Position numbers and translations under genes: made by a program. Source: Candidatus Dormiibacterota bacterium (GTDB lineage: Bacteria > Chloroflexota > Dormibacteria > CF-121). Taken from it: a stretch of 64,000 nt of DNA. The first letter of the stretch is position 1; each line of letters starts with the position of its first letter. The DNA is taken from the NCBI GenBank assembly GCA_036782775.1, contig DAIPYJ010000007.1, positions 1,082 through 65,081 of the forward strand, read 5' to 3'. Below are positions 6,910-50,216 of the stretch, piece after piece. The notes under the pieces were generated by a model, which was not told the origin of the DNA, did not search any database, and was given only the letters and a program-made list of their open reading frames with translations.

Positions 6910-7205
6910 TCGCCGATCACAGCGAGCCGATCGACACCGAGACCGTTCGCGACATCGCTGCCGACCTGCGTGGCGAGCTCGACCGGGTCCAGGAGCAGAT
7001 GGCCGAGCTGACCAAGGAGCACAAGCGGGCGGTCGCGCTCAAGCACATCTTCGGGGTGGACCCGCTGACCCGCGACCGCTTCAACCATCTGCATACCCAC
7101 ATCGACCAGTACCCCGGCAAGATGGCGGAGCTGCGCGAGGAAGAGCGATTGCTGTCCCGCTGGCTTGACCGTTGCCGCGATCTGATTCAGCCGAAAGCCG
7201 CCTAA
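6906..7205 (+). CDS. small hypothetical protein translationally coupled to the CpaF-like ATPase
   Basis: ATGA stop/start overlap at 6906-6909. It encodes a 99-aa charged helical protein with no TM. Confidence 0.4.
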   Translation: MIADHSEPIDTETVRDIAADLRGELDRVQEQMAELTKEHKRAVALKHIFGVDPLTRDRFNHLHTHIDQYPGKMAELREEERLLSRWLDRCRDLIQPKAA

Positions 7206-7314
7206 CCGAAGCACGATCTGACAGCCACCCTGGGCTATTCCTTGACAACCGCGCGTTCAAGATGCTTTGTTTGTAGGCAGGGTCAGAGCTGGGGTTCTTG
7301 CGGAGGGCTCAATC

Positions 7315-8922: not shown

Positions 8923-9608
8923 ATCTCGACCGCGCGCACGATGAAGTCGCGGCTGCCGTCCCAGGTCCAGCAGGTTTGCAGCGTCAGGGTCGATTGGGCG
9001 GTGGAGCCCAGCGGCCAGAGCTGCGTGTTGCTGACGATGGTGGTTGACGTCACCCGATAGGTGTGCACTCGGCCCGATGGGTCGCCGTACTCGACGATGT
9101 CACCGGCGTGCAGCGCCAGGATGGGCGTGAAGATCCCCGGGTTGTGCGCCATCACATAGATGTTGTTGGCGCCGGCGCAGCTCCAGCGCCAGGTGCCCCA
9201 CCGCGGGACGGCGGCCCGTCCCAAACAGTCGCTGTACCAGCCCACTGGTTGATTGAGGCCAAGGCGAGGAATCACGATGTTGTTGGCGTGGACGGCGGCC
9301 GGAGCCGGACGAGCGGGAGCAGGGGCGGCAGGCGCAGTGGAGATCGGGGCGACACCCGGCGCCGAAACGGCTGGCGATGATGTCACCAGGGCCGCGACCA
9401 CCGTCGAGGCCGCCAGGGCGCTGGCTTGCCGCTGGACGAGCTGGCGGACGATCTGCCGCTCGCTTACTACCAGGCCGGCGTCCTTGACGCCGCGAGCGGC
9501 CTGGGGCGCGGCCGACGCTGGATGAGAGAGCAAGAGAGGGACGGTCATCAACCACAGCGCGATGCCTCCCAGCAGCGGAGCGCGCCAGCGACGCCAGACC
9601 TTGCCCAT
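8919..9608 (-). CDS. sortase-family transpeptidase (class E/F-like)
   Basis: N-terminal membrane anchor, then Ala/Pro linker and the catalytic region ...NIYVMAHNPGIF...LHAGDIVEY...HTYRV...TLTLQTC (TLxTC Cys motif). Confidence 0.7.
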   Translation of the reverse strand: MGKVWRRWRAPLLGGIALWLMTVPLLLSHPASAAPQAARGVKDAGLVVSERQIVRQLVQRQASALAASTVVAALVTSSPAVSAPGVAPISTAPAAPAPARPAPAAVHANNIVIPRLGLNQPVGWYSDCLGRAAVPRWGTWRWSCAGANNIYVMAHNPGIFTPILALHAGDIVEYGDPSGRVHTYRVTSTTIVSNTQLWPLGSTAQSTLTLQTCWTWDGSRDFIVRAVEI

Positions 9609-15276: not shown

Positions 15277-17709
15277 TTAGCTCGCCTTCCGCTTCTGCTC
15301 GTATAGGGTGGCGTCCGCGGCGGCAAGCAGCTGCTCGACCGTCCGACCCTGGTCGGGAAAGGTCGCCACGCCGAGGCTCACCCCGGGAATCTCGAGCAGC
15401 TCGCGACCGGCCATGAAGCGATGGCGGGCGATGCCGTCGGTGATGCGCTGCGAGACGCTCGCGGCCGCGCTCGCGCCCGTCGAGGGCAGCAACAGCACGA
15501 ACTCGTCGCCGCCGTAGCGGGCAACCAGGTCCTCGCCGCGGACCGCGTCCATCAATGCATTGGCGACTTCGCGCAAGAGGGCGTCACCGGCGAGGTGGCC
15601 GTAGGTGTCGTTGATTCGCTTCAACTCGTCGACATCGAGAAAGATGATCGAGAACGGAAGGGCATTTTGCTGCGCGCGCGCAATCTCCTCCTCGAGGCGG
15701 TCGAGGAAAAGGCGTCGATTGAAGAGCCTGGTCAAGGGGTCATGACTCGCCTCGCGCTTGAGCCGATCATGCAGCTGCGCGACTTCCAGGTTGGAGGCGA
15801 GCTGGGAACCGACCGCCGTCATCAATCCCAGGTCGTTCTCGGAAAAGCCGTCCAACTGATCGCTCTCGACATTGAGCACGCCGACCACGCGGCCGTGGCT
15901 GACGAGGGGAAAGGTCAGCTCCGACCGGACCTTGGGGTCGAGCCCGACGTAGCGGGCGTCTTTCTGCACGTCGGGGATGAGCAACGGCGTCCCGTGCGTG
16001 AAGACCCATCCGGTGATTCCTTCTTTTAGCGAGATGGTCATGCCCGTGATGTCGCGCTCGTATCCGCTGTAGGCGCCCACACACAGCTCCGTCTGCTTGT
16101 CACTCGGCAGCAGGATCGAGACGAGGTAATAGCCCATCACATCGCGAATGATGTTCACGATGCGGGCGAGCAGCGTGGCGAGCTCGAGCACCGCGGTCGT
16201 CTCCTGGGCGATCCGGTAGATGATGCGGAGCTCACGGGAATCGGCGACGCTCAGGATGTCCGTGCGTGCGGCTGCGCTGGGCTGCGCGGCAAGTAACGTG
16301 GCTTCGAGCTCCTGGTACCAGGCGAGCGGGCGCGTGGCCCCTTCGCGCACCATCTCGATGAACCGCTGCATGATTGCGGGGTCGAGGTTGATTCCGGCAA
16401 AATGCCCGAGCTCCTCAAGGCCCTCCGCGATCGTTCGTTCTGTCCTGTGCGGCAGGTCGAAGGTCACGTTGAAGAAGGCGTTGACCACCGCAATCACGCG
16501 GGTCTCGATCGGGATCGATTCGCCGGCGATCCCGTCCGGATAGCCCTCGCCGTTGAACCACTCATGATGGGACCGGACCACCGGGGCAAGGTCGGCCAGC
16601 GGCTTGAAGCGGTGCAGCAGGTCCGCGCCGACCACGGGATGCGTCATCACGAGGGCGCGTTCCTCGACGTCGAGCCGCCCGCGTTTCCTGAGGATGGTGT
16701 CCGGCAGGCTGAGCTTGCCGAGATCCTGGAGCAGCGCGGCGTAACGTACGCGCCGGCAGCGGGCTGTATCAAATCCCAGATGTTGGGCGAAACGTTCGGC
16801 TAGTTCAGCGTGCTCGCGCGCCCGGCTCCGCAACGCTTCTCGCAGGTCGATGGCGCTGGCGAGCATCAGCACGGTCGCTTCTTCGACTTCGCGCGATTCG
16901 GCCAGCAAGCGGGCGGTTTCCAATGCCGCTGCCGTCTGGTTGGCGAACGCCATGACCGCCGGAAGATCGCCCACCTGAAGCGTCGAGCCGATGACCGTGA
17001 TGACGCCGATCGCCCGCTCCGCCACCACCAGTGGCGCCGAGATCGCCGCTTCGGCTCCCAGCGCCGCGGTGATCTGCCGCGCATTTGCCGCCTTGCCCGG
17101 CCTTGCCCCATAGGCGATCCGCGCCATGAGCTCGTCCCGGTCGCCGACGTAGTGAGGGCGAAGCGTGCGGCAGACCTCCTGAAGCGTGGGCACGCGTTCG
17201 AAGGGGAAAAAGTCGTCGCCTCGATCGGCACCGGTCAGTCCGGCTAATTCACCAGCCGGCGCGAACGTCCGTCGGTAGACGACCCGGACCCCGCGACCGT
17301 CCGGCGTGCATTCAAAGAGAAAGGTCGAGCCGCCGGCTTGCGCCAGGCGATTGCCGACGGCTTCGAAGATCGCCTTCCGCTCCAGGGTTCGGCTGGCCTG
17401 CACGCCTGCCTCGCTGAGGGCTGTCAGCAGGGGGCTCGTGCGCGAGGCCGGTTCTTCGTCGTGGGCCGGGTTGACGTCCGGCGGTCGCAGGAACTGGGTG
17501 TAGCCGGCCTCGACCAGCCGTTGCGGCTGAAAGAACCAGACGCGACCGATCTTTTCCCCGGGCAGGCGGCCGGCGCGCACCTGGCGTCGCACGACCTCCG
17601 GGTGGCGATCGATGATGGCCGCCACCTCCTCGACCGAGAGCAACCCCGGAAATTTTGCGGAGGCAGCTGGCGCGGGTTGTGTGACGCGACGCTTCACTGC
17701 AGTCTGCAA
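15277..17709 (-). CDS. multidomain c-di-GMP signalling protein: excisionase-type HTH, GAF, HD-GYP phosphodiesterase, GAF, GGDEF diguanylate cyclase
   Basis: N-terminal LSVEEVAAIIDRHPEVVRRQVRAGRLPGEKIGRVWFF (HTH). HD domain with HHEWFNGEGYPDG. Second GAF, and a C-terminal GGDEF domain (RYGGDEFVLLL). The start at 17707-17709 is TTG, so the true start is uncertain. Confidence 0.75.
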   Translation of the reverse strand: MQTAVKRRVTQPAPAASAKFPGLLSVEEVAAIIDRHPEVVRRQVRAGRLPGEKIGRVWFFQPQRLVEAGYTQFLRPPDVNPAHDEEPASRTSPLLTALSEAGVQASRTLERKAIFEAVGNRLAQAGGSTFLFECTPDGRGVRVVYRRTFAPAGELAGLTGADRGDDFFPFERVPTLQEVCRTLRPHYVGDRDELMARIAYGARPGKAANARQITAALGAEAAISAPLVVAERAIGVITVIGSTLQVGDLPAVMAFANQTAAALETARLLAESREVEEATVLMLASAIDLREALRSRAREHAELAERFAQHLGFDTARCRRVRYAALLQDLGKLSLPDTILRKRGRLDVEERALVMTHPVVGADLLHRFKPLADLAPVVRSHHEWFNGEGYPDGIAGESIPIETRVIAVVNAFFNVTFDLPHRTERTIAEGLEELGHFAGINLDPAIMQRFIEMVREGATRPLAWYQELEATLLAAQPSAAARTDILSVADSRELRIIYRIAQETTAVLELATLLARIVNIIRDVMGYYLVSILLPSDKQTELCVGAYSGYERDITGMTISLKEGITGWVFTHGTPLLIPDVQKDARYVGLDPKVRSELTFPLVSHGRVVGVLNVESDQLDGFSENDLGLMTAVGSQLASNLEVAQLHDRLKREASHDPLTRLFNRRLFLDRLEEEIARAQQNALPFSIIFLDVDELKRINDTYGHLAGDALLREVANALMDAVRGEDLVARYGGDEFVLLLPSTGASAAASVSQRITDGIARHRFMAGRELLEIPGVSLGVATFPDQGRTVEQLLAAADATLYEQKRKAS

Positions 17710-17744: not shown

Positions 17745-18755
17745 GTGGATCCGCTGCCTTCCGGCCCTATGCCGGAGCGCCGCACCATCCTGGTCACGGA
17801 TGACAGCGCCGCCAACCGCGATCTGATCTGTGGGCAGCTCTCCACGCTCGGCTTCTGGACCGAAGCGGCGACCAACGGCGAGGAGGCAATCAGCGCCGCC
17901 CGCCGGCTGAAACCGGACCTGATCCTGATGGACGTCGAGATGCCGGTGATGAACGGGCACCAGGCCTGCCGGCAGCTCAAGTCCGATCCCCAGACTGCGG
18001 ACATTCCGGTGCTGATGATGACGGGCTTCGATCCCCGGCCGGAGCGCGTCAAGATGGTCGAAGCCGGCGGCGACGACCTGATCGTGAAGCCGGTCCCGAT
18101 GCGCGACCTCCAGGTGCGCGTCCGGGCGCTGCTGCGGCTCAAGGAACTGCGCAAAGACCTGCGCAGCACGCAGGAAAGCCTTCGCGAGCTGGTCAAGCGC
18201 GAGAACCCCACTGAGTCGAAGGCGCCCTTCGACGACAGCGTGGCGCTGACTGCCCAGGCGCTGGCTCGGCTGATTGGTCTCGACGCCGAAGACCAGGAGG
18301 TCGCATTCCACGCCGGGTTGCTTCATGACATCGGGCAGATCGGCGTGCCGGAGGAACTGTTGAACAAGCAAGGCAGCTACACGCCCGAAGAGTTCGCCCA
18401 GATCCAGAAGCACACGGTGCTCGGCGCCGAGATCGCCGGACCGTTCCGTCCCGCCTCGGTGCTGGCGCCCGCCATCAGGCACCACCACGAGCGCTGGGAC
18501 GGTTCGGGCTACCCTGACAAGCTGCAGGGCCCGGCCATCCCGATGATGGCCCGCATTGTCGCCGTCGCCGACGCGTTCCACGCGATGATCATCGACCGCC
18601 CTTACCGGCCTCGGCATACCGTGGGCAAGGCGCTCGAGATCCTCGCGGCCGGCGCCGGCACGCAGTGGGACCCGCGGCTGGTCTCGGCCTTCGCGACCTC
18701 ATCGCTGCCCCAGCGCATCGCCGGTACGCCAAACGAAGAAGCAAAGATCGCGTAG
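17745..18755 (+). CDS. response regulator with HD-GYP output domain (RpfG-like c-di-GMP phosphodiesterase)
   Basis: Receiver ILVTDDSAANRDL...LILMDVEMPVMNGH...K. HD-GYP domain with HAGLLHDIGQIGVP and HHERWDGSGYPD. Confidence 0.8.
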   Translation: MDPLPSGPMPERRTILVTDDSAANRDLICGQLSTLGFWTEAATNGEEAISAARRLKPDLILMDVEMPVMNGHQACRQLKSDPQTADIPVLMMTGFDPRPERVKMVEAGGDDLIVKPVPMRDLQVRVRALLRLKELRKDLRSTQESLRELVKRENPTESKAPFDDSVALTAQALARLIGLDAEDQEVAFHAGLLHDIGQIGVPEELLNKQGSYTPEEFAQIQKHTVLGAEIAGPFRPASVLAPAIRHHHERWDGSGYPDKLQGPAIPMMARIVAVADAFHAMIIDRPYRPRHTVGKALEILAAGAGTQWDPRLVSAFATSSLPQRIAGTPNEEAKIA

Positions 18756-18831
18756 GCCGCTTCAGCGGCCCGCCCGTTTGAGTCTCTGAAGTAACTGCGC
18801 CCCGAAGGACGAGCGCATGCCCGTGGAAACA

Positions 18832-18859
18832 GTTCGGCCGGCCCGAAGGCCGGCCGAAC
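18832..18859 (-). terminator. strong intrinsic terminator downstream of pilA
   Basis: GTTCGGCCGGCC-cgaa-GGCCGGCCGAAC forms a perfect 12-bp stem. A second hairpin, GGCCGC-ttca-GCGGCC at 18763-18778, follows the convergent plus-strand gene. Confidence 0.6.
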
Positions 18860-18880
18860 CAGGGTCACAATGTCAGTCGA

Positions 18881-19294
18881 TCAGTTGAAGGTGCAGGTCG
18901 CGTTCAGGACGCCGTGGACGGTGCCCTTCGGCGGAGACGCCTTGTAGGTGAAGGTCTCGGTCGCCGGCGGAGCCTGGTGCAGCAGGTTGGCGTTGACGAG
19001 CTCGGTCGTGTTCACCGCGTCACCGGCGGCCGGGGTCGCCGTGTCGCCGCCAGCGGCGCCATCGGGATAGACGTTGTTGGTGTAGTAGTACAGGTCGACC
19101 GCGCCCTGGATGGTCGAACCGTCGGTCTTCATGGCGTTGCACGCCGCAGTCGCGTTGACGCCGGCGATGTTGAAGAGCACGATGGCGGCCAGTGCGCCCA
19201 GGATCGCGATCACGACGAGCAGTTCGACGAGGGTGAAGCCGCCCTGGCCGCGCCGGGATGCGCCACGGCCCTGCTTGAGGATTGAAAGAACCAT
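18881..19294 (-). CDS. pilA: type IV major pilin (prepilin with class III signal)
   Basis: Leader ending ...RRGQGG followed by FTLVELLVVIAILGALAAIVLF (the prepilin cleavage/methylation motif). 137 aa with two Cys in the C-terminal half. It is the last gene of the operon and is followed by a strong terminator. Confidence 0.8.
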   Translation of the reverse strand: MVLSILKQGRGASRRGQGGFTLVELLVVIAILGALAAIVLFNIAGVNATAACNAMKTDGSTIQGAVDLYYYTNNVYPDGAAGGDTATPAAGDAVNTTELVNANLLHQAPPATETFTYKASPPKGTVHGVLNATCTFN

Positions 19295-19327
19295 TGTTGT
19301 CGTATTACCTCCTTACTCACAGTCGAG

Positions 19328-19358
19328 ATTAGAGTCACTTTCTTGCGAGATCTGTAAA
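19328..19358 (-). promoter_or_regulatory. candidate internal sigma70-like promoter for pilA (weak call)
   Basis: The minus strand reads TTTACA-19 nt-TCTAAT in a locally AT-rich 70-nt gap upstream of the pilA RBS AAGGAGG. The 19-nt spacing is non-ideal. Confidence 0.2.
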
Positions 19359-19365
19359 ACGCCGG

Positions 19366-19517
19366 TCAGCGCAGTAGCAGTTGGGTCACGGCGATCGCCG
19401 CCAGCGCGACGGCCACCAGGGCGGCGGCGACCAGCAGCAGCGGTCGAGCGCGCCGGCCGAGACGGGGCGGCGCAAAGTCGACGGCGACCTGGGGCTTGCG
19501 ATCAGGCCGCGACACCG
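19366..19517 (-). CDS. tiny single-TM ORF (about 49 aa) overlapping the pilM stop; possible PilN remnant or micro-protein
   Basis: GTG start 8 nt after AAGGAGG, which lies inside the 3' end of pilM. It encodes VSRPDRKPQVAVDFAPPRLGRRARPLLLVAAALVAVALAAIAVTQLLLR, a positive N-terminus followed by one TM. Confidence 0.3.
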
Positions 19518-20413
19518 GTGTCACCTCCTTGTGACGGGCTGAGGCGAGGCTGCCAGCGCTCCTGCTGAAGGAGGCCGATTTCGGCGAAATGCGCCTGCCA
19601 GGGAAAGTCCGCGGATGCCTGCAGCCGAGTTTGCGGCGAACGAGCCTGGAAGCCGAAGCTTTGCCCGGCGCGTTCCGGTCCGCCATCGAGAAAAGCGAAG
19701 CGGCCACTCACCACAAGTGGTGTCCAGGGTCCGATGCTGATATCCGGCGCGGCGCCGCGCATGAACTTGACCAGCGCGGCCACCGAGAGGGATAGCTCCT
19801 CGAACTGCGCCTCGGCGTCGTCGGGGGGAGCGTCCAGTTGAAAGGTTCGCAAGAACCTGGGCCGGCCGCCGGCCATCAGGACCAGGGTCGCCTCGACGGC
19901 GCCCCACTCGAGCAGCAAGCCGTCGGCGACCCCCATGCCACGTGCCAGGGCCAGCGGCTTCAGGTCCATCCGTTCGACCGTGAGCCCTGCCGCGCCCAGT
20001 GCCGAGATGACGCCGTCGATCATGGCCCGCCGGGCAGCCACCAGGTAGACGGCGTATCCGCTGGCAATCCGCTGCGCCTGCCAGGCGAAATAGACATCCT
20101 CGGGATCCAGCGGAATCAACCTCCGCCCTTCAAACAGCACGGCACTGCTCAGCTCGCTGGCAGGAAGGCGGGGCAAACGAAAGTCGCGAAAGGCTGTTCC
20201 GGTCTCGGCAATGGCCACTCGCACCGTTCCGGGAGAAAATCGCTGCTCCTGGATGACGCCGCGAACCACGGCGGTCAGCAAGGGCGTCGGGATGCCATCG
20301 ACGACCGCCCCATCTGGCAAGAGCATCTCGGCATGGCGCGTGAGCTGTCGGCCGTCCGCCTCCAACAGTCGCAACTCGCGATTGCCAAGGTCGAGACCAA
20401 GCCGCCGGCTCAC
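19502..20413 (-). CDS. pilM: type IV pilus assembly protein PilM (actin-like ATPase fold)
   Basis: GTG start at 20411-20413 overlaps the upstream stop (GTGA), with GGAGG 6 nt upstream. The N-terminus VSRRLGLDLGNRELRLLEA matches the PilM signature. The longer 449-aa ORF in the track is an out-of-frame artefact upstream of this start. Confidence 0.7.
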   Translation of the reverse strand: MSRRLGLDLGNRELRLLEADGRQLTRHAEMLLPDGAVVDGIPTPLLTAVVRGVIQEQRFSPGTVRVAIAETGTAFRDFRLPRLPASELSSAVLFEGRRLIPLDPEDVYFAWQAQRIASGYAVYLVAARRAMIDGVISALGAAGLTVERMDLKPLALARGMGVADGLLLEWGAVEATLVLMAGGRPRFLRTFQLDAPPDDAEAQFEELSLSVAALVKFMRGAAPDISIGPWTPLVVSGRFAFLDGGPERAGQSFGFQARSPQTRLQASADFPWQAHFAEIGLLQQERWQPRLSPSQGGDTGVAA

Positions 20414-20847
20414 TGGTAGGCCTCCCAGGTCACGGCAGAGGTTCCGTTTCCGAGCTCCGTCACGAGGGCCGTCAAGCTCCGCGCGGTGCCGCTGGCGGTA
20501 ATCGTGAGGTTCCAGGTGGCGCCGTTGCCATGACAGGGGTTTCCTTTTCGGATGCGGGTGGTGACCGTAATTGGCGAACCGGCGTAGTTCAGGGTCACCG
20601 CACTCGTTCCAGGCGCATTGCAGCCATTGCCGTTCTTGTCGTCGATCGCTTGCATGCCATAGGCGAGCCCGGCGTCGAGCGCGTAGGTTGTGCGCGTGTC
20701 CGCCTTCACACCGGAGAGGCTGAGGAAAGCGCTGCTGGCCAGCGTCAGCGCCGCCGCAACAACGAGCAAGAAGGCGGCGACAAAGGTCATCACGATGAGC
20801 AATGCCTGGCCGGCTTCGGCGTGACGCTGAGGACGCATCAGAAGCAT
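20410..20847 (-). CDS. PilX-like / pseudopilin-like pilus assembly protein
   Basis: N-terminus MRPQRHAEAGQALLIVMTFVAAFLLVVAAALTLAS resembles the PilX_N hydrophobic segment. 145 aa. Coupled to its neighbours. Confidence 0.5.
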   Translation of the reverse strand: MLLMRPQRHAEAGQALLIVMTFVAAFLLVVAAALTLASSAFLSLSGVKADTRTTYALDAGLAYGMQAIDDKNGNGCNAPGTSAVTLNYAGSPITVTTRIRKGNPCHGNGATWNLTITASGTARSLTALVTELGNGTSAVTWEAYQ

Positions 20848-21308
20848 CCACCAGGCCGGTTACCGACGTTCAAGGTCGACGCGCTGGCGCCGGTCGTCGA
20901 CGGCTGAATGGTGACTGTGGCGTAGCAACCGATCGTCATCAGGGTGATGCTGGTGATCTCCCGGGCGGCCGTCTGGGCGCTCCCGTTGACGGTCCTGATC
21001 AGGTTGTTGCTGCCGTCCACGCTGTAGATCACGGTCGTCAGCGTCGCCGGAGCTCCATAGGTCAGGGTGATGGTGCTGACGCCGCCGGCGGTTCCGGGCA
21101 CGAGTGCATTGGCGCTGTTGAGATCCTTGACCAGGACCAGGCTGGCTTCGTTGACCGCCGTGTCGGCCGCGATCGCGCGCGCTTCCGTTGTCAGCGTCTG
21201 GTAGCCGACCAGGAAGGTGCCGGCGAGGGCGATGCTGACCACCACCATGATCGCGACGCCGACCGCCATTTCCACCAGGGTGAAGCCATGCTGCTGGCTA
21301 CGCCTCAT
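20838..21308 (-). CDS. minor pilin (prepilin-type N-terminal cleavage/methylation domain)
   Basis: MRRSQQHG then FTLVEMAVGVAIMVVVSIALAG. Confidence 0.7.
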   Translation of the reverse strand: MRRSQQHGFTLVEMAVGVAIMVVVSIALAGTFLVGYQTLTTEARAIAADTAVNEASLVLVKDLNSANALVPGTAGGVSTITLTYGAPATLTTVIYSVDGSNNLIRTVNGSAQTAAREITSITLMTIGCYATVTIQPSTTGASASTLNVGNRPGGCF

Positions 21309-21685
21309 GGTTGCTCCTTCAGAAAGAGAAGCTGCTCCCTACTACTGTTGGGACCGCTGACCGTAAGGCTGATCTCTTGCAGCCCGGCATCCGGGTTGGT
21401 GGTCTTGAAGCTGACCGGTGGTCCGGCAGCGTAGTTGAGGACTTGATAGCTGAACGAATAGCCAGCGCTGGTGAGGTTGGTATAGGTACCCGTCGTCGAG
21501 TACGCCTGACTCTTGATGTATTCGGCGTTGGAGCGGGTCAGGGTGTCAAGCTTGGTCAGTTGCTGATGGCGCGTCGCCGCGATGGTTGCCGCAGAAAACG
21601 CGCTCAGGATCGAGACGACGATGACGGCAAGCAGCGCGACCGCCACGGTGGTCTCGATCAGCGTGAAGCCGCGCTTGCGGTTCAT
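21305..21685 (-). CDS. minor pilin (prepilin-type N-terminal cleavage/methylation domain)
   Basis: MNRKRG then FTLIETTVAVALLAVIVVSILS. Its stop overlaps the downstream start. Confidence 0.7.
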   Translation of the reverse strand: MNRKRGFTLIETTVAVALLAVIVVSILSAFSAATIAATRHQQLTKLDTLTRSNAEYIKSQAYSTTGTYTNLTSAGYSFSYQVLNYAAGPPVSFKTTNPDAGLQEISLTVSGPNSSREQLLFLKEQP

Positions 21686-22908
21686 TTGATCGCCCCCACC
21701 AGCCCGTACATTGCCGAGATCAGCGAGATGGCGATAAAGCCGACGACCGCGCCGACCGCGATCGTCATCGCCGGCTCGATCATGGCCGTCATCGAGCGAA
21801 TCCGATGGTCGAGCTCTTCTTCGTAGAACTCGGCGGCCTGCTCCAGGTAGGTGTCGAGCGTTCCTGTCTCTTCACCAACGCGAACCATCTGCGTCAGCAT
21901 TGGCGGAAAGAGATGGGTGCGGAGCAGCGGGCCGGCGAAGCCTTCGCCTCCCGTCATCTGTTCCTTGACCCCGCGTAGGCCCTCCTGAAAGACGCGGTTT
22001 CCCGTGCTGGCGATCACGGCGTCGAAGGTCTGACCGAGCGGCACGCCTGCTTTCAAGACCATGGCAAGGGTTCGGGCAAAGCGGTTCAGGATCGCCGAGA
22101 GCACGATCGGGCCGAAAACGGGGATCCTGATCGCGATCACGTCCTTTCGATATCGGCCCCAATCGGTGCGGAGCGCCGCGACGGTGCCGGTGACCAGGGC
22201 GGCCAGGCCAACGCCGACTTCGAGCGCCCAGGTTTCCAGGAAGGTGACGATCCCGAGCAGAATGCGGGTCGGCAACGGTAGCTCGACCTTGAACTCGGCA
22301 AAGATGCGCACAAATGCCGGCAGCGCGAAAACCACGAGGATGATGACGACCCCGACGGCCAGCAGCAGGATGACGGTCGGATAGATCAGCGCCGATCGCA
22401 ACCGTCGCAGGGTGTTCAGGTCACGCCGGAGATAGACCGCGAGCTGTTGCAGCGTCGCCTCGAGATTTCCGGTCAGCTCGGCGACGCGGATCAGGTCGAT
22501 ATAGAGCTGAGAGAAGACGTTCGAGTGCTTGGCGAGGGCATCAGAAAGGTTGAGCCCACGTTCAAGGTCGTCGAGGATGGCAAGAATGACGCGCTTGAAG
22601 AGGGGTGAGGCCGCTTCTTCCGCCATGGTGCCAAGCGCGCGGCTCATCGGAACGCCGGCGCCGACGAAGGTTGCCAGCTGTCGAGTGAAGAGGATGATGT
22701 CGGCTTGTGAAATGCGAAACAAGGTGGGGAAGTAATCCGCCATCGTCTTGGCTGGTGGCGCCGGGTAGAGGCGGACGATCTTGAGCCCCTGCAGCCAGAG
22801 GCTCTGTTCGGCAGCGGAGCTGCCTTCGGCCTCGACCCGACCCTCGCGGCGCTCACCGTTCTCGGTGTACGCGCGATAGGCGTAGCTAGGCACCGCTGCC
22901 CTCGACAT
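21682..22908 (-). CDS. pilC: type IV pilus platform protein PilC (T2SS-F family)
   Basis: 408 aa with two T2SSF repeats and polytopic membrane topology. Confidence 0.85.
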   Translation of the reverse strand: MSRAAVPSYAYRAYTENGERREGRVEAEGSSAAEQSLWLQGLKIVRLYPAPPAKTMADYFPTLFRISQADIILFTRQLATFVGAGVPMSRALGTMAEEAASPLFKRVILAILDDLERGLNLSDALAKHSNVFSQLYIDLIRVAELTGNLEATLQQLAVYLRRDLNTLRRLRSALIYPTVILLLAVGVVIILVVFALPAFVRIFAEFKVELPLPTRILLGIVTFLETWALEVGVGLAALVTGTVAALRTDWGRYRKDVIAIRIPVFGPIVLSAILNRFARTLAMVLKAGVPLGQTFDAVIASTGNRVFQEGLRGVKEQMTGGEGFAGPLLRTHLFPPMLTQMVRVGEETGTLDTYLEQAAEFYEEELDHRIRSMTAMIEPAMTIAVGAVVGFIAISLISAMYGLVGAIK

Positions 22909-24610
22909 GGACCGACCGGATTACTTCGCTAATCGTCGTCAGGCCCTCGTCGACCTTGGCGATGCCCGCGCTTCGCAGCGTCATCATGCCTTCGCCGATG
23001 GCGCGTTCCCGTAGCGCTTCCGGCGGAGCATCACGAACCAGCAGGCGCTTGATCGCCTCGCTCATCCGCAGCACCTCGTAAACCCCGATCCGGCCGAGGT
23101 AGCCGGTGTGCGCGCACGAGGCGCACCCCGTGCCACGCCGAAACTCGGTCGCGACCCCGCCGGCGGCGCGGTAAAAACCGAGCTCATCCGCAGGCGGCTC
23201 GTAGCCTACGGCGCATTGCAGGCAGATCCGGCGCACCAGGCGCTGCGCCAGGACCCCGATCACGGCGGACGTCACCATGAACGATTCGATGCCCATTTCG
23301 ATAAATCGATAGATGGCGCCGATGGCGTCGGTGGCATGGAGGGACGAGAGAACCAGGTGGCCGGTGAGCGCCGACTGCACCGAGATCTCGGCCGTCTCCT
23401 TGTCGCGGATCTCGCCGACCAGGATGGCGTCCGGGTCCTGCCGGAGGATGGCGCGCAAGCCATTGGCGAAGCTGATCCCAGCCAGACGGTTGATCTGGAT
23501 CTGGTTGACGCCTTCGAAGGTGTATTCGACCGGATCCTCGATCGTCATGATGTTGCGCTCGACATGGTCGAGCTCGTTGAGCGAGGAATAGAGCGTGGTC
23601 GTCTTGCCACTTCCGGTCGGCCCGCTGACGAGCACCATGCCGTAAGGCGATCGGATCAACGAACGGTAGCCGTCAAGGGCCGAGGGCGCGAAGCCGAGGC
23701 TATCGAGGCCGAGGATCGATCGCGACCGTTCGAGCAGCCGGAGCACGACCTTCTCGCCCCAGATGGTCTCGATCGTTCCGACCCGGATGTCGAGGGGCCG
23801 TCCTTCGACGGTTGTCTGGATCTGGCCGTCCTGGCTGTGCCGGCGGTCGACGATATCGAGGTTGGCGAGCAGCTTGACGCGGGAGGCGATCGGCGCCGCC
23901 AGCGTCGCGGGCAGCCGGGTCGCCTCATGCAGGACGCCGTCGATGCGAAAGCGAACCCGCAGATGATCTTGCTGCGGCTCGATGTGGATGTCGGAAGCGC
24001 GCTCCTCGGCGCCTTCGGCAATGATCAGGTCGACGATCTGCACCACCGGCGCATCCTTGTTGACTTCGGCCAGACGGCGGCTCGGCCCCGCAGGCCGAAG
24101 CGTTTCCTCGAAGGAGCGGACGTGACGGTCGACGCCGGTTCGCAGCTTGTAGAACTGTCCGATCGCCTGCTCGATCTCCGAGCGCACGCCCAGCAGCGGC
24201 TTGATCCGTTTCCGCGTCAGCACCTTCAGCTCGGCGAACAGGGCCAGGTCGCCGGGGTCGACGGTGGCAACCTCCAGCTCGTCCTTGTCGAGACGGACCG
24301 GCAGGATGGCATGCTCGCGGGCGTAGGCCTCGGGGATGAGCGCCAGCGCATCTTTCTCGACTCGGGTACGCGTGAAATCGATCAGCGGCACCTTGAAGTG
24401 CTGGCTGAGCACGCGCGCCAGCGCCTTTTCCTCAACCAGCCCCTGGGCCAGCAGGACCTGCCCAAGCGGCTGTCGGCGCCGCCGCTGCTCGCCCAAGGCG
24501 GCGTCGAGCTGTTCGAGGGTCAGCAACCCGTTCTCGAGCAGCAGCTCTCCCAGTCGTTTATCCTGCCGAAGCCCGAGGCCGCTGGTTGGTTGACGTTCGA
24601 CCGCGCTCAC
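22886..24610 (-). CDS. pilB: type IV pilus assembly (extension) ATPase PilB/GspE
   Basis: N-terminal GSPII_E_N domain (LLENGLLTLEQLDAALGEQ), Walker A GPTGSGKTTTLYS, and a CxxC...CxxC tetracysteine motif. GTG start overlaps the upstream stop (GTGA). Confidence 0.85.
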   Translation of the reverse strand: MSAVERQPTSGLGLRQDKRLGELLLENGLLTLEQLDAALGEQRRRRQPLGQVLLAQGLVEEKALARVLSQHFKVPLIDFTRTRVEKDALALIPEAYAREHAILPVRLDKDELEVATVDPGDLALFAELKVLTRKRIKPLLGVRSEIEQAIGQFYKLRTGVDRHVRSFEETLRPAGPSRRLAEVNKDAPVVQIVDLIIAEGAEERASDIHIEPQQDHLRVRFRIDGVLHEATRLPATLAAPIASRVKLLANLDIVDRRHSQDGQIQTTVEGRPLDIRVGTIETIWGEKVVLRLLERSRSILGLDSLGFAPSALDGYRSLIRSPYGMVLVSGPTGSGKTTTLYSSLNELDHVERNIMTIEDPVEYTFEGVNQIQINRLAGISFANGLRAILRQDPDAILVGEIRDKETAEISVQSALTGHLVLSSLHATDAIGAIYRFIEMGIESFMVTSAVIGVLAQRLVRRICLQCAVGYEPPADELGFYRAAGGVATEFRRGTGCASCAHTGYLGRIGVYEVLRMSEAIKRLLVRDAPPEALRERAIGEGMMTLRSAGIAKVDEGLTTISEVIRSVHVEGSGA

Positions 24611-24798
24611 GCCGCGGCTCGGATCGGCCCTCGGAGCTGCTTGCGGATCTCTTCGAGCATCTCCGGCGTAAAGCGAAGATGCCGGCCTGGAGTACGAAAC
24701 GCCGCCTGGATGTCGCCACGGTTCACCGCTCGGATCAAGGTCGACTTGCTGATGCCCAGCACGCGGGCGGCTTCGGACGTCGACAGGGCCGGCTTCAT
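24607..24798 (-). CDS. excisionase/MerR-like HTH DNA-binding protein (63 aa) embedded in the pilus operon
   Basis: LSTSEAARVLGISKSTLIRAVNRGDIQAAFRTPGRHLRF is an HTH_17/excisionase-family fold. Its stop overlaps the pilB GTG start. Confidence 0.6.
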   Translation of the reverse strand: MKPALSTSEAARVLGISKSTLIRAVNRGDIQAAFRTPGRHLRFTPEMLEEIRKQLRGPIRAAA

Positions 24799-24842
24799 CA
24801 GCTCTCCAAGCGGAGCAAACGCGTCAACTGCCGCAAACTTGC

Positions 24843-25928
24843 TTAGGCGGCCAGGCGGCGCAGTTCCTCAGGGTGCTGGCTCCGGGTGGCCGCGAGGTTG
24901 TAATCGATCAGACCGGCGCGGATGAGGTCGCTGAGACTTCGCTCCATGGTGTTCATGCCCTCCTTGGCGCTCGTCTCCAGCACGTTGCGCAACTGGCGGG
25001 TTTTCCCCTCCTTGATCAGGTTCTGGACCGCGATCGTGTTGAGCAGAACCTCGAAGGCGGCGACTCGGCCCGGCCCGTCGCGCCGAGGCAGCAGCTGCTG
25101 ATAGATCACCGCCGCCAGCGTGCTCGACAATTGAATGCGGACCTGCTGTTGCTGCTCCGCCGGGAAGACGTCGACGATGCGGTCGACGGCCTGGGTGGTG
25201 TCGTTGGTATGCAAGGTCGCCAGCACCAGGTGGCCGGTTTCGGCGATCGTGATCGCCGCCGCGATCGTCTCGAGGTCGCGCATCTCACCCACCAGGAGCA
25301 CGTCGGGAGTCTGGCGCAGGGCGGCGCGCAGGGCGTCCGAAAAGGAGGCGACGTCCGCGCCCACCTCCCGTTGCTCGACAATACTGCGCTGATGCCGGTA
25401 GACATACTCGATCGGATCCTCGATCGTGATCACGTGGCAGGGCCGGTTGGCGACGATGTCGCTCACCATGGCGGCCAGCGTCGAGGACTTGCCCGACCCG
25501 GTTGGACCGGTGACCAGGATCAGTCCCTGGTTGAGCTTGGTGAGCCCGCGGACCACCACCGGCACGCCCAGCTGGTCGAAATTCGGAATCTGGTAGGGGA
25601 TGAGCCGCAGGGCCAGCCCGACCGAGCCCCGCTGCATGAAGGCGTTGATCCGGAAGCGCGCCTCGCCGCGCCAGTTGAAGGAGAAATCGAGATCGCGGCG
25701 CTCCTGGAACTGCTTCCAGCGCTCCCCCGACAGCACTTCGCGCGCCATCTGCTCGATCTGCTCGGGGCGCAGCGGCTGCGGCGCGATCGGGACGAGCGCG
25801 CCGTCCTTGCGCATGGTGGGCGGCGCCCCGGCGGAGAGGACGAGGTCGGACGCCGCCTGCTCCAGGAGGACCTGCAGATAGGCGTCAATCGTCAGGGCTG
25901 GCTGGGCTGGCTGGCCGGAGGGCGCCAT
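24843..25928 (-). CDS. pilT: twitching-motility retraction ATPase PilT
   Basis: Walker A GPTGSGKSST, plus the AIRNLIRE-like motif (IAVQNLIKEGK) and His box. 361 aa. Confidence 0.85.
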   Translation of the reverse strand: MAPSGQPAQPALTIDAYLQVLLEQAASDLVLSAGAPPTMRKDGALVPIAPQPLRPEQIEQMAREVLSGERWKQFQERRDLDFSFNWRGEARFRINAFMQRGSVGLALRLIPYQIPNFDQLGVPVVVRGLTKLNQGLILVTGPTGSGKSSTLAAMVSDIVANRPCHVITIEDPIEYVYRHQRSIVEQREVGADVASFSDALRAALRQTPDVLLVGEMRDLETIAAAITIAETGHLVLATLHTNDTTQAVDRIVDVFPAEQQQQVRIQLSSTLAAVIYQQLLPRRDGPGRVAAFEVLLNTIAVQNLIKEGKTRQLRNVLETSAKEGMNTMERSLSDLIRAGLIDYNLAATRSQHPEELRRLAA

Positions 25929-26347
25929 TGATCGACATCCTGTGCAACCTCCTCGGCGCAGCCTTCTTGCTTCCGCTGGGGAGTGCCCTTGGCAGCTTCT
26001 TTGAGGTGGTTCTCGATCGCGTGCCGCGCGGCGAATCGCTGCTCTGGCCCCCCTCCCATTGCCGCATCTGCAACCGGCGGCTGACGCCCGACGAGCTGGT
26101 GCCCGTGATCAGCTACCTGGCGCAGCATGGGCGCTGCCGAGGCTGCGACACGAGGATCGGCCGCGGCGTCCCGATTCGCGAGGGGCTGAGCGGGCTGGCG
26201 CTGGGTCTTCCCTGGCTGCTGGCCGGCTGCCAGTATCCGTCGATCGCGCTTGGTGTTGGCATCGTCGCGCTCCTCGTGATCTGGATCGCTCGCGGGCTCA
26301 CCCAGGGTCCCTTGCCGCGGACGCCGGACAGAACCAAAAGCAATTAA
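25928..26347 (+). CDS. pilD: prepilin peptidase N-terminal (Zn-ribbon, DiS-P-DiS) domain only; the A24 catalytic domain is absent or truncated
   Basis: LGSALGSFFEVVLDRVP...SHCRICNRRL...VPVISYLAQHGRCRGCDTRI...IRE matches the PilD N-domain, including both CxxC pairs. The ORF stops at TAA 26345-26347 after 139 aa. The TTG start shares a base with the pilT start codon. Confidence 0.6.
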   Translation: MIDILCNLLGAAFLLPLGSALGSFFEVVLDRVPRGESLLWPPSHCRICNRRLTPDELVPVISYLAQHGRCRGCDTRIGRGVPIREGLSGLALGLPWLLAGCQYPSIALGVGIVALLVIWIARGLTQGPLPRTPDRTKSN

Positions 26348-26377: not shown

Positions 26378-27232
26378 GTGAAACTGACGGGCCCGCTGCT
26401 GCGCGAAGTCGTCGGCATCCGGCGAATCGTCGCGCTGGCGATTCTGCTCGCGGCGGTAGCCGCCGTCGCTTACCTGGAGCGGTCGGTCGCCGGTGACATC
26501 GATCTCCGTCTGGTCTATTTCTTGATCGTCCTCTCGGGCGCGATGCTGCTGCCGCGGATGGTCGCGTTGAGCGTGGCGGCGGCGGTCGCGGTCGTCAGCG
26601 TCGGGGTTAGTGGCGCCCAGGGCATGAGCCTGGCTATCAACGGCGTCACCCATCTGCTGATGTACGGCTACGCGGCGCTGCTCACCAACAACTGGGAGCA
26701 GGAACGCCGGCGCCTGATGCGGATGAGCCGGGTCGACGACCTCACCGGGCTCTACAACCTGCGCGCTCTCAAGGAGCAACTGCCGATCTGGCTGGGACCG
26801 GCGGCGCGGACCGGCCGGCGCATGACGGTGATGATGATGGACATCGACGGCTTCAAAGAGGTCAACGACCGGCTCGGCCATGGTACCGGCAACGAGCTGC
26901 TCAAAGAAGTCGCCAACCTGCTTCGCTTCGCCGTGCGCATCGGCGACGAACCCTTCCGCTTCGGGGGCGACGAGTTCGTCTTGCTGCTGGCCGACGCCGA
27001 CGCCGACGGAGCCATGGTGGTCGGGACCCGCATCCAGGACATCTACCGCTCCATGGGACAGACGCTCCGCGGCACCAATATCGACGTCTCGTTCAGCGTC
27101 GGTCTCGCGATTTTTCCCGATGATGGCGCCACCCCTGAGCTGCTGCTGGCGCGCGCCGATCAAGCGCTCTATCAGGCGAAGCGGAGCGGCGCCGGCAAGA
27201 TCGCCCGTTACCGCGAATCTGCCGCCGCCTGA
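26378..27232 (+). CDS. membrane-anchored GGDEF diguanylate cyclase (possibly the downstream part of a disrupted fusion with the preceding ORF)
   Basis: About 110 aa of TM helices, then a GGDEF domain (RFGGDEFVLLL, with an intact RxxD-like I-site region). The GTG start has no SD and is in frame with the upstream ORF, 10 codons past its TAA. Confidence 0.65.
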   Translation: MKLTGPLLREVVGIRRIVALAILLAAVAAVAYLERSVAGDIDLRLVYFLIVLSGAMLLPRMVALSVAAAVAVVSVGVSGAQGMSLAINGVTHLLMYGYAALLTNNWEQERRRLMRMSRVDDLTGLYNLRALKEQLPIWLGPAARTGRRMTVMMMDIDGFKEVNDRLGHGTGNELLKEVANLLRFAVRIGDEPFRFGGDEFVLLLADADADGAMVVGTRIQDIYRSMGQTLRGTNIDVSFSVGLAIFPDDGATPELLLARADQALYQAKRSGAGKIARYRESAAA

Positions 27233-27238
27233 ACCTCT

Positions 27239-28258
27239 CTAGCGGCAAGTCCAGGACTGCGTGAGCGCAGGCGCAGAGTAGAACGGGCTGATGAAAATCA
27301 ACTGGACGGTGCCCGACGAGTTGGGGTGCACATAGCTGTCGGTGATCACGTGCGCGTTCGTGTCGCCGGCCGCGACCACCAGCGAACCCGAGTGGACGGT
27401 GACCACGCTGTTGCCGCTACTGTTCGTGTCTTTGTAGATCCAGGTATATCTCACGGTGCCCCCCGGGCCGCCGGCCTGCATCCGGAAGGTGCCGGTGGTG
27501 TTAACGGTGGTCATGGTGCATTTGTCCGAGCCGTTCTGTGAGAGGCTCGCACTGTCCGACGCGCTGGCGATCGCGAACGGCCCTGAGGGTGTGGGTGTTG
27601 GAGTCGGTGTGGGTGTGGGTGTTGGTGTTGGGGTCGGAGTGGGTGTGGGCGTGGGCGTCGGCGTTGGTGTGGGCGTCGGCGTCGGCGTGGGGGTGGGCGT
27701 TGGAGTTGGCGTGGGCGTGGGCGTCGGCGTGGGCGTCGGCGCTGCGCTCGGCGTCGGAGAAGCGCCGGGCGTCGGCGAGGCGCTCGGGCTGGGCGATGGG
27801 GAGGCGCTCGGGCTGGCGGACGCGCTCGGCGACGGCGACGCACCGGCCGATGGCGAGGCGGTTGGGCTCGACGACGCCGATGGTCTCGGACTGCTGCTGC
27901 CGGAGGTCGAGGCTGCCGGCGTCGTGCTCGGCCGCAACGCGATCAGCGGACGCGAGGTCGTGTTAGGCCGCGCGGCGAAAAATCGCGGTGGCAGGTTGAA
28001 GGTCGGGACCAACAACCAGAAGGGAGCGTGGGGGTCGTCGGCAAAGTAGAGGCTCGCGTCCGGCTCAGCGGCGCTGCCGCTGGCGTCGATCCGGAAAGGA
28101 CCGACTTCCCAATCGGGTGGGATGGCGCGCACCAGGAAGAAGAGGACGATCAGGCCGAAGAAGAACAAGAGGAAGCCGAACTTCCGGCGCCGCTTGCGCT
28201 CGTCCGCCTGCTCTTCTTCCGTCTGCGGTTGGATGGCGCGCCTGAATGGGAGTCGCAT
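27239..28258 (-). CDS. membrane-anchored protein with long Ser/Pro/Thr linker and small C-terminal beta domain (hypothetical)
   Basis: N-terminal basic stretch plus one TM (FGFLLFFFGLIVLFFLV), about 110 aa of (SP)/(PT) repeats, and a Cys-containing C-terminal domain. Confidence 0.5.
   Translation of the reverse strand: MRLPFRRAIQPQTEEEQADERKRRRKFGFLLFFFGLIVLFFLVRAIPPDWEVGPFRIDASGSAAEPDASLYFADDPHAPFWLLVPTFNLPPRFFAARPNTTSRPLIALRPSTTPAASTSGSSSPRPSASSSPTASPSAGASPSPSASASPSASPSPSPSASPTPGASPTPSAAPTPTPTPTPTPTPTPTPTPTPTPTPTPTPTPTPTPTPTPTPTPTPTPTPTPSGPFAIASASDSASLSQNGSDKCTMTTVNTTGTFRMQAGGPGGTVRYTWIYKDTNSSGNSVVTVHSGSLVVAAGDTNAHVITDSYVHPNSSGTVQLIFISPFYSAPALTQSWTCR
27589..27740. repeat. hexanucleotide tandem repeat (GGNGTNGG)n encoding a (PT)n linker
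   Basis: The repeat ggtgtgggtgttgg... is visible directly. A shorter copy of the same repeat type lies at about 5211-5290 inside the phosphoesterase gene. Confidence 0.8.
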
Positions 28259-29962: not shown

Positions 29963-30669
29963 GATCGTTGGACGAGGATAGCAGCGGCCACGATCGGCGC
30001 CAGCCGCGCCCGCAAGATCCGCGGGCCAAGGTGCACTTCGATGCCGCCGCGCTCGCGCATCAGCGATCGCTCCTCGTCGCTCCAACCACCTTCCGGACCG
30101 ATCGCCAGCGCGTAGGCGGGAACCCTGTCAACCGCAACCAGTGCCCTGGTTGCTCGCGGGTCCAGCACGAGCAACTGATTCATTCCCGCGACCGCGTCGA
30201 CGGCGGCCTCGAGCGAGATCGGCCCGCGCAGCTCCGGCGCCCGGCCGCGATGGCTCTGTTCGGCGGCCGAGACCGCAATCGTTTGCCAGCGGCTGAGGCG
30301 GCTGGCAGCCGGACGGGCAATCGAGCGCGCCGCCTGCACGGCGATCACCTGGCTGACGCCGACCGCGGTCGCGGACTCGATCACTGCGTCGAAGTCCGGA
30401 TTCGGCAGCACCGCCTGGAGCAAGGTCACGCTCACCGACGGCTCACCGCCGATCGGCCGCCGTTCCAGCACCTGGGCTTTGACCGTCCCGTCGGCGACCT
30501 CGGACACCGCGACGTGATGCTCGATGCCCTCGGCCACCACCACGCCCTGCTCGCCAACTCGAACCCGAAGCACCCGCGCCAGGTGATGGCCCTTGCCGCC
30601 CGAGATCACGAGCTGATCGGTTTGTGGGCGGGTCTGGTCGAGCAGCAGCCAGAACAATGCCGTGCCCAT
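29959..30669 (-). CDS. rsmE: 16S rRNA (uracil1498-N3)-methyltransferase RsmE
   Basis: Shows the RsmE family pattern, including the C-terminal ...LAIGPEGGWSDEE motif. The ATG at 30667-30669 is preferred over the TTG at 30687. Confidence 0.7.
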   Translation of the reverse strand: MGTALFWLLLDQTRPQTDQLVISGGKGHHLARVLRVRVGEQGVVVAEGIEHHVAVSEVADGTVKAQVLERRPIGGEPSVSVTLLQAVLPNPDFDAVIESATAVGVSQVIAVQAARSIARPAASRLSRWQTIAVSAAEQSHRGRAPELRGPISLEAAVDAVAGMNQLLVLDPRATRALVAVDRVPAYALAIGPEGGWSDEERSLMRERGGIEVHLGPRILRARLAPIVAAAILVQRS

Positions 30670-30686
30670 GCTATCCGTCCACGCCA

Positions 30687-35614: not shown

Positions 35615-35633
35615 GCCCTGTTACTCAGCCTCC

Positions 35634-37088: not shown

Positions 37089-37093
37089 GCCGA

Positions 37094-47375: not shown

Positions 47376-47388
47376 GCCAACTCACTTT

Positions 47389-47414: not shown

Positions 47415-47430
47415 GTCAGGGTGGGGGGCT

Positions 47431-49184: not shown

Positions 49185-49193
49185 GAGCAGCTG

Positions 49194-50202: not shown

Positions 50203-50216
50203 GCTAGCCTGCTGAT

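Follow-up and report, generated by a model that had tools for sequence, protein, structure and literature searches.

Within a 64-kb stretch of DNA (hereafter the window) from a metagenome-assembled genome of Candidatus Dormibacterota, an uncultured phylum, the host being described as a soil bacterium, ten genes spanning about 7 kb of the minus strand (18881-25928) form a pilus operon that we favour reading, with some reserve, as that of a type IVa-like pilus (T4aP) of a monoderm bacterium in which PilN is reduced to a 49-residue anchor for PilM and PilO is absent. Gene identities were taken from an open reading frame (ORF) listing and from hidden Markov model (HMM) scans with Pfam and NCBIfam/TIGR models, and these uphold the gene order that had been proposed from the letters alone (the sequence-only reading): pilT, a helix-turn-helix (HTH) gene, pilB, pilC, two minor pilin genes, a PilX-like gene (gene X), pilM, a 49-codon transmembrane ORF (the small ORF) and pilA. 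Gene junctions were read directly from the sequence. A scan with one genome per species gave 31 related loci, all of them from Dormibacterota (some carrying a Chloroflexi label under older taxonomy), and was followed by tblastn of every window protein, so that coverage extends over the whole window and the ~20 kb surrounding each related locus. The start and Shine-Dalgarno sequence of the small ORF were compared across 28 loci, as was the spacer between the small ORF and pilA, and the frame of a divergent prepilin-peptidase-like gene (the A24_N gene) was compared across 19 related loci. The order from the A24_N gene through pilT to pilA proved to be the same in all 31 related loci by tblastn, and such recurrence in 31 independent contigs indicates that the architecture is not a chance arrangement. 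Within the literature library that was searched, no paper on Dormibacterota pili was found. The two genes at the centre of this reading are:

19502-20413, minus strand: pilM, encoding a divergent actin-like PilM of 303 aa; PF11104 matches its N-terminal half only (26.5 bits against a cut-off of 27).
19366-19515, minus strand: the small ORF (GTG start, 49 codons and a stop), encoding a small membrane protein of 49 aa (MSRPDRKPQVAVDFAPPRLGRRARPLLLVAAALVAVALAAIAVTQLLLR), a proposed mini-PilN or PilM anchor.

Conservation of its start, Shine-Dalgarno sequence and length, together with third-position wobble and the dN/dS ratio, indicates that the small ORF is a real, protein-coding gene. First, translation would begin at a GTG (19515-19513 in the window; replaced once by ATG) that lies exactly 14 nt ahead of the pilM stop in 28/28 loci, and the Shine-Dalgarno sequence AAGGAGGTGA is likewise conserved in 28/28 loci, where GGGAGGTGA, encoded by the invariant S-Q-G-G-D codons of PilM, precedes the start. 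This start corrects the interval 19366-19517 given in the sequence-only reading, which at 152 nt is out of register and extends two bases too far. Second, the ORF was detected in all 29 related loci that reach beyond pilM (29/29), with a protein length of 48-52 aa. Third, beyond the pilM overlap its variability at codon positions 1/2/3 is 0.31/0.28/0.48, the DNA encoding the invariant residues A17, P19, T48 and Q49 varies at the third position only, and the median dN/dS is ~0.49 at a dS of ~0.74. Finally, the small ORF is called by gene callers in several sources: its product falls into more than 200 clusters at 90% identity in the protein database, which among those listed are 'hypothetical proteins' of 48-51 aa, and a profile search of 1.84 billion representative proteins recovered 24 clusters at 50% identity, all of 38-55 aa and with the amino-acid motifs conserved. 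That the frame is no gene at all and lies open by chance in GC-rich DNA between pilM and pilA would be in keeping with the abundance of spurious ORFs in high-GC genomes (the G+C content is ~65% over the whole window), with the shortness of the protein and with its low-complexity hydrophobic part. We nonetheless consider this very improbable, because start, Shine-Dalgarno sequence, stop and length have been kept across 28 species-level genomes at that degree of synonymous divergence, because wobble is confined to the third position at the four invariant residues, and because the motifs hold over all 24 of the 50%-identity clusters.

As expected for a pilN gene, the small ORF lies directly downstream of pilM and appears to be co-expressed with it, the 14-nt overlap and the Shine-Dalgarno sequence inside pilM recurring in 28/28 loci. 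The layout of the encoded protein also appears to match the PilM-binding N-terminus of PilN. Its consensus reads MSRPDxxPxV-[AG]-V-D-F-A-P-P-R-x-p-x-R-x-x-R-P, followed by ~22 hydrophobic residues and a V-T-Q-L-L-L-R C-terminus; that is, a motif [VI]-x-[VI]-D-F-A-P-P-R is succeeded by basic residues and a single membrane helix, at the end of which the protein stops. Since positive charges precede the helix, the predicted topology is N-in, with essentially nothing beyond the membrane. PilM binds the N-terminus of PilN in known systems (PMC6916266; PMC4471445), and the corresponding segments are MNPPINFLPWRQQRR in E. coli HofN (motif INFLPWR) and MIRINLLPVRAVKKR in Myxococcus xanthus PilN (3JC8; motif INLLPVR), each followed by a helix; one member of the small-protein family carries VAVNFAPP. 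When the family profile was compared with HofN by hhalign, VDFAPPRLGRRA/INFLPWRQQRRT was the one alignment obtained, its probability being 3% and its pairwise E 0.014; phmmer of HofN against PDB sequences did not retrieve PilN. On these grounds the small protein would work like the PilM-anchoring end of PilN, as a putative member of the PilN family.

The periplasmic part of PilN, a coiled coil plus ferredoxin-like domain (PF05137), has no counterpart in a protein that ends at residue 49, after its helix, and none of the 23 family members examined matches PF05137 (0/23). As PF05137 covers the PilN ectodomain only (HofN residues 99-166), its silence confirms that the ectodomain is lost and says nothing about the N-terminus. 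When the small protein, singly or as a 23-member alignment, was compared with Pfam, NCBIfam and PDB sequences, only chance matches to hydrophobic segments were obtained; matches to DctQ, an anti-sigma factor and signal peptides were dismissed as chance hydrophobic similarity of this kind.

The presumed partner, PilM, is encoded by a frame that holds for the full 303 residues: over 200 homologues are likewise 303 aa long, the AlphaFold2 model has a mean pLDDT of 88.7, and its best Foldseek matches are the solved PilM structures of Pseudomonas aeruginosa and Thermus thermophilus (E ~6e-19, TM-score 0.66-0.73), ahead of FtsA and GspL. A wrong start call for pilM, which the sequence-only reading had named as a way in which it could fail, is thus not what we find. 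Judged by this model, the window protein has a true PilM fold, as expected of a T4aP, though the sequence HMMs stay under their cut-offs (40 bits against 133 for TIGR01175, in addition to the PF11104 score given above). It is 100% identical to 'pilus assembly protein PilM [Candidatus Dormibacteraeota bacterium]' of contig DATCUH010000281.1 (GCA_036567485.1). The C-terminal tail of PilM is disordered in the model (pLDDT 56-64) yet strongly conserved, and this conservation is explained by dual coding with the start of the small ORF: at 19502-19530 (minus strand) the codons of the invariant PilM C-terminal SQGGD-x-RVAA also supply the small ORF with its Shine-Dalgarno sequence and with codons 1-5 (MSRPD).

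The sequence-only reading had left it undecided whether PilM is orphaned or partnered with the tiny transmembrane ORF. If PilM were effectively orphaned, it would act through contacts with PilB and PilC, and the 49-aa protein would be an unrelated neighbour, for example a PilC stabiliser, a pilin chaperone or a regulator of pilin processing. The small protein indeed has no significant match to any family or solved structure, its hhalign probability to HofN is low, and PilM is reported to interact with PilB and PilC in other systems (works cited in PMC10191384). Against this, all loci retain the tight translational coupling of the small ORF to pilM, and the small protein is best conserved in its cytoplasmic motif, which resembles in position and chemistry the motif by which HofN and M. 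xanthus PilN bind PilM. Moreover, a soluble PilM needs a membrane tether, for which every known relative uses a bitopic partner or a fusion (GspL, Clostridioides difficile PilMN). We therefore regard an orphaned PilM as unlikely, and the partnered option as the better supported one on account of conservation, translational coupling and the PilN N-terminus layout.

We then considered whether a conventional PilN or PilO is encoded nearby. No PilN, PilO, PilP, secretin, FimV or PilZ domain was found in the Pfam annotation within +-10 kb of pilM, nor by HMM scans in the other main ORFs of the 64-kb window, as the sequence-only reading had maintained for PilN and PilO of normal size and for the other components. 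Off-frame ORFs overlapping pilM contain no PilN, PilO, PilP or secretin either, and roughly 450 kb of annotated Dormibacterota flanks hold no PilN or PilO. Canonical pilN, pilO and pilQ genes flanking the operon, whose presence would have spoken against the reading, were thus looked for in the flanks and in the main ORFs of the window and were not encountered. The pilM stop and the pilA start are 208 nt apart, too short a distance for a normal PilN; one hidden in another frame was rejected on the basis of this spacing and of the empty off-frame scan. PilN and PilO, the signature of T4aP, hence have no PF05137 or PF04350 match in the operon, within +-10 kb or in the main ORFs of the window, while the lack of the secretin PilQ and of PilP (components of diderm systems only) in the window is expected for a monoderm. 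The term 'monoderm-type' used in the sequence-only reading agrees with this absence of a secretin, with a sortase gene in the window and with published work that groups Dormibacteraeota, Chloroflexi and the Candidate Phyla Radiation (CPR) in one monoderm clade (10.1101/2021.05.31.446380).

The prepilin peptidase, too, is incomplete at the locus, where it is represented by a single divergent gene:

25928-26347, plus strand: the A24_N gene, 139 aa, divergent from pilT, with the N-terminal four-Cys prepilin-peptidase domain only (PF06750, A24_N_bact).

The start codons of the A24_N gene and pilT overlap by one base, and the stop-to-stop frame of the former measures 129-150 aa in 18/19 related loci and 220 aa in the other (L026). 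The A24 catalytic domain, which a T4aP requires, was not found at the locus, and its GxGD[VI]K motif is absent from all six frames of the window; the catalytic domain is presumably encoded elsewhere in the genome. The sequence-only reading had overlooked this gap. The A24_N protein itself may be a stand-alone methyltransferase-like protein or a partner subunit. Full-length PilN and PilO might similarly be encoded at a second locus and complete the machine, the small protein then being an accessory extra. Such an arrangement would draw on the fact that the A24 catalytic domain must also come from elsewhere, so that the locus is not self-sufficient, on the limits of the regions covered, and on the presence of PilN and PilO in sister lineages (Saccharibacteria and some Chloroflexota). 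Conversely, pilMNO are contiguous in monoderm T4aP and in most diderm systems, every locus that extends far enough has the small ORF in the position behind pilM, and neither the window nor the annotated Dormibacterota flanks contain PilN or PilO. We judge a second locus to be quite improbable and consider, on the basis that sister lineages retain PilN and PilO, that their reduction in Dormibacterota appears to be derived.

The remaining genes of the operon, in the order of transcription, are as follows:

24843-25928, minus strand: pilT, retraction ATPase, 361 aa, the first gene of the cluster; TIGR01420 (PilT/PilU) 462.4 bits against a cut-off of 319.1, and PF00437.
24607-24798, minus strand: HTH gene, 63 aa, excisionase/MerR type; PF12728 (HTH_17) 47 bits, TIGR01764 36.7 bits against a cut-off of 28.8.
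22886-24610, minus strand: pilB, extension ATPase, 574 aa; PF00437 (T2SSE) 419 bits, PF05157 (MshEN) 70 bits.
21682-22908, minus strand: pilC, platform protein, 408 aa; PF00482 (T2SSF) in two stretches.
21305-21685, minus strand: minor pilin 1, 126 aa, GspI/ComGE-like; PF07963 (N_methyl) 30.3 bits, weak XpsI, GspI and ComGE matches.
20838-21308, minus strand: minor pilin 2, 156 aa; PF07963 27.7 bits, TIGR02532.
20410-20838, minus strand: gene X, a PilX/GspK-like pilin-fold protein without Glu5, 142 aa from the ATG at 20838 (alternative ATG at 20847).
18881-19294, minus strand: pilA, major pilin, 137 aa; PF07963 35 bits, TIGR02532, GspG-like N-terminus.

These genes supply the motor, platform and filament expected of a T4aP. 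The retraction ATPase PilT scores above the TIGR01420 cut-off and is 78-90% identical across related loci. For PilB and PilC, the PilB, GspE, GspF and PilC models of NCBIfam match over the full length, all under their equivalog cut-offs (for PilB, TIGR02538 reaches 560 bits against a cut-off of 676). The N-terminus of PilB (residues 15-157) is an MshEN-type domain, of the kind that binds cyclic di-GMP (c-di-GMP), with the c-di-GMP motif NF053729 at an E of 4e-15, and pilus extension is probably controlled by c-di-GMP. The HTH gene, whose product also has a weak BldC-family match, is located between pilT and pilB in every related locus that covers the interval.

Class III signal peptides of the G|FTLxE type, as T4aP pilins require, are present, PF07963 scoring over its gathering threshold in PilA and both minor pilins. 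PilA has a basic leader of 19 residues, the start of which is the only in-frame start, followed by G|FTLVELLVVIA. The leader length is therefore as the sequence-only reading stated, but its description there as unusually long does not hold: leaders are of 16-19 residues in all related loci, with G|FTLVE conserved, and long leaders are typical of monoderm T4aP pilins (PMC6916266). Gene X matched no Pfam family, the PF14341 (PilX-type) HMM included. Its product has the conserved N-terminus QRGQALLxVLxFVAAFLL, that is, a hydrophobic N-helix with an RG-x-A-L type start as in PilX/GspK and without Glu5, and two conserved Cys. The AlphaFold2 model (pLDDT 85) shows a 60-residue helix followed by a 5-stranded sheet, the 'lollipop' of pilins, and the nearest PDB structures, all weak (E >= 0.09), are the Streptococcus sanguinis minor pilin PilA, the Xcp pseudopilus, GspK and EpsI. 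By this model gene X encodes a pilin fold and no replacement for PilN or PilO; the possibility of a hidden PilO- or PilN-like bitopic protein was rejected because the model is that of a pilin and its neighbours include no PilN or PilO structure. Minor pilin 1 (GspI-like by weak matches), minor pilin 2 (of unassigned type) and gene X together look like the usual priming set.

On the basis of this gene content, the reduced-PilN reading can be cast as a mechanism. PilB, sensing c-di-GMP through its MshEN domain, PilC and PilT would constitute motor and platform, and three minor pilins, of the GspI, GspJ and PilX/GspK types, would prime the PilA filament. The motif of the small protein would dock into PilM as the INLLP motif of diderm PilN does, and docking would anchor PilM to the membrane as a ring that surrounds PilC and PilB; the helix of the small protein, with its invariant VTQLLLR end, may touch PilC or the alpha-1 helices of pilins within the bilayer. 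As there is neither an outer membrane nor a secretin with which alignment would be needed, PilN, PilO and PilP would have lost their ectodomains, and prepilins would be cleaved by a peptidase from another locus. We infer that PilM and the small protein bind each other, that PilN and PilO are absent genome-wide and that pili are produced. In its strongest form, the proposal is of a retractile T4aP-like pilus without any extracytoplasmic assembly or alignment subcomplex, in which the micro-protein, as a remnant of PilN or its functional replacement, holds the PilM ring, and PilO and the PilN ectodomain are dispensable without an outer membrane; this version we advance tentatively, as a serious possibility that falls somewhat short of being probable.

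Several points weigh against the reduced-PilN reading. PilM scores under the cut-offs of both curated PilM HMMs (PF11104 and TIGR01175). The likeness between the motifs of the small protein and PilN is short, as the hhalign values illustrate, and the search of 1.84 billion representative proteins returned neither a longer relative of the small protein nor a full-length PilN, an outcome that speaks neither for nor against descent from PilN and leaves such descent unproven. The evidence covers the 64 kb and the flanks of the related loci, and PilN and PilO could sit elsewhere in the genome. Lastly, the organism is uncultured, and its pili and envelope type are predicted.

Outside the coding regions, two elements of the pilA end of the operon could be delimited:

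19295-19365, minus strand: conserved non-coding block of 71 nt from the small ORF to pilA; candidate internal pilA promoter/operator and pilA Shine-Dalgarno sequence.
18825-18859, minus strand: intrinsic-terminator-like hairpin (18832-18859) including a short U-rich tail; 12 G/C-rich pairs and a UUCG loop.

The genes upstream of these elements are tightly packed. Four stop/start overlaps of 4 nt occur in the operon, GTGA at HTH/pilB and gene X/pilM and ATGA at pilC/minor pilin 1 and minor pilin 1/minor pilin 2, consistent with the serial overlaps described in the sequence-only reading for the HTH/pilB, PilX-like/pilM and minor-pilin junctions. In addition to the 14 nt shared by pilM and the small ORF, pilB and pilC overlap by 23 nt, and minor pilin 2 and gene X overlap by 1 or 10 nt depending on which start of gene X is taken. 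The hairpin after pilA has a free energy of -33.3 kcal/mol (z = -3.6) and is followed by UGUUUCC; the 12-bp stem reported earlier is confirmed, with a U tract so weak that the window hairpin failed a strict T-tract scan. In nearly all related loci, on the other hand, the same GATCGGCCGGCC...GGCCGGCCGATC hairpin with a clearer T tract follows pilA, and given these orthologous T tracts an intrinsic terminator is a fair reading of the window hairpin as well.

Conservation of the 71-nt spacer is far above what the Shine-Dalgarno sequence alone would need, with invariant blocks TT.AC ... CGCAAG ... TA ... TCGAC ... AGGAGGT in the 28-locus alignment. No consensus RNA structure (28 loci) and no Rfam family were found for it, and a riboswitch, for example one for c-di-GMP, was rejected on this account. 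High conservation combined with this lack of RNA structure or Rfam match fits an internal promoter or operator, and a sigma-70 consensus scan found no promoter in the operon, the spacer included. From these sequence features, pilA probably has its own promoter in the spacer, and transcription probably ends at the hairpin that follows the gene. It is a matter of speculation that the spacer is an operator for the BldC/excisionase-like HTH protein encoded in the pilT-pilB interval.

Genes for c-di-GMP turnover-type proteins surround the operon at 15277-17709 (minus strand), 17745-18755 (plus), 26378-27232 (plus) and 30624-32864 (plus). They encode a transmembrane GGDEF protein, a response-regulator HD-GYP protein and two HD-GYP-GAF-GGDEF proteins, one of which has an HTH_17 N-terminus. 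The first three of these genes flank the operon across related loci, and the response-regulator HD-GYP protein is 84-93% identical across most of them. The gene at 27239-28258 (minus strand) specifies a membrane-anchored protein with a long (PT)n/Ser-Pro-Ala linker, long enough to cross a cell wall, and a conserved C-terminal domain without family match; it is found beside the GGDEF gene in many loci. Further away, a lone TadA/CpaF-type ATPase is encoded at 5725-6909 (plus strand; TIGR03819, 317 bits) with no TadB/C beside it, followed by a 99-aa ORF (6906-7205, plus strand) and by a gene (7267-8922, plus strand) for a secreted Gly/Pro-rich protein of 551 aa with a weak match to the CPR pilus protein PamR. 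The sortase gene (8919-9608) is on the opposite, minus strand. Another part of the window (34145-38311 and 44859-59286) is occupied by a one-carbon or methylamine-type metabolism cluster comprising an MttB-family methyltransferase, aldehyde and alcohol dehydrogenases, a DAO-GcvT fusion (dimethylglycine/sarcosine oxidase-like), ETF, MTHFR, a pterin-binding protein, the corrinoid activator RACo and formate-THF ligase.

PilM, PilN and PilO are treated as the signature of T4aP, all three being essential even in Streptococcus sanguinis, the monoderm model, and their exact role in assembly is open in the field (PMC6916266; PMC10191384). If the reduced-PilN reading, which appears to apply to a whole phylum, is true, the ectodomains of PilN and PilO would not be intrinsically required for assembly or retraction, and the conserved job would be the tethering of PilM to the membrane. 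In the strongest form of the proposal, the Dormibacterota operon would encode the smallest natural pilus machine with both PilM and PilT. It would also represent a natural experiment in which what PilMN does in the cytoplasm is separated from what PilNO does in the periplasm, as well as a case of machinery pruning after loss of the outer membrane in the Chloroflexota/CPR/Dormibacterota clade. With its ~7 kb and 10 genes, it could serve for heterologous reconstitution of a minimal retractile pilus. The weight of the finding, which is computational and concerns uncultured organisms, depends on the genome-wide absence of PilN and PilO and on a real interaction between PilM and the micro-protein.

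Comparison with known systems places these features in context. In the diderm PilM-PilN pairs (T. thermophilus 2YCH, P. aeruginosa 5EOU, M. xanthus 3JC8 and E. coli HofMN), pilM is likewise followed by the gene of its partner, PilM has the same fold, and the partner has a short cytoplasmic N-tail with a hydrophobic-[N/D]-[L/F]-x-P-x-R motif ahead of basic residues and a single membrane helix, a layout to which that of the small protein appears similar. By contrast, the helix of diderm PilN is succeeded by a coiled coil and by a ferredoxin-like domain in the periplasm (PF05137), which pairs with PilO and PilP, whereas the Dormibacterota protein has nothing beyond its helix. In GspL of the type II secretion system and in C. 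difficile PilMN, a PilM-like cytoplasmic domain is similarly carried on a single membrane helix, and the GspL cytoplasmic domains 1yf5 and 4pht are among the structural neighbours of the PilM model. Those proteins are single fused polypeptides, GspL keeping a periplasmic domain and its partner GspM (PMC10191384), while in Dormibacterota two overlapping genes are used and there is no outside domain. The Com (ComG) pilus of Firmicutes is another type IV filament machine of monoderms whose membrane complex is very small, but it lacks PilM and PilT, both of which are encoded by the Dormibacterota operon. In the sister lineage Saccharibacteria/CPR, which is monoderm too, PilB, PilC, PilT and PilM are clustered with pilins (PMC11623550); the loci of Saccharibacteria TM7x additionally encode PilN, PilO and PilD (PMC11623550), in contrast to the Dormibacterota loci without PilO and the PilN ectodomain. 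Finally, the T4aP of monoderm Firmicutes (the S. sanguinis pil locus, Clostridium perfringens and C. difficile) share with the Dormibacterota operon a single cluster with PilB, PilC, PilT and PilM, several minor pilins, a long-leader major pilin and the lack of a secretin and PilP (PMC6916266). They differ in having a full PilN (about 22 kDa), a large PilO and pilD in the locus, where Dormibacterota have the 49-residue protein, no PilO and the A24_N domain only, and in S. sanguinis both PilN and PilO are essential (PMC6916266). The Dormibacterota system is therefore closest to the monoderm T4aP of S. sanguinis and Clostridia, but departs from the PilMNO trio that defines them.

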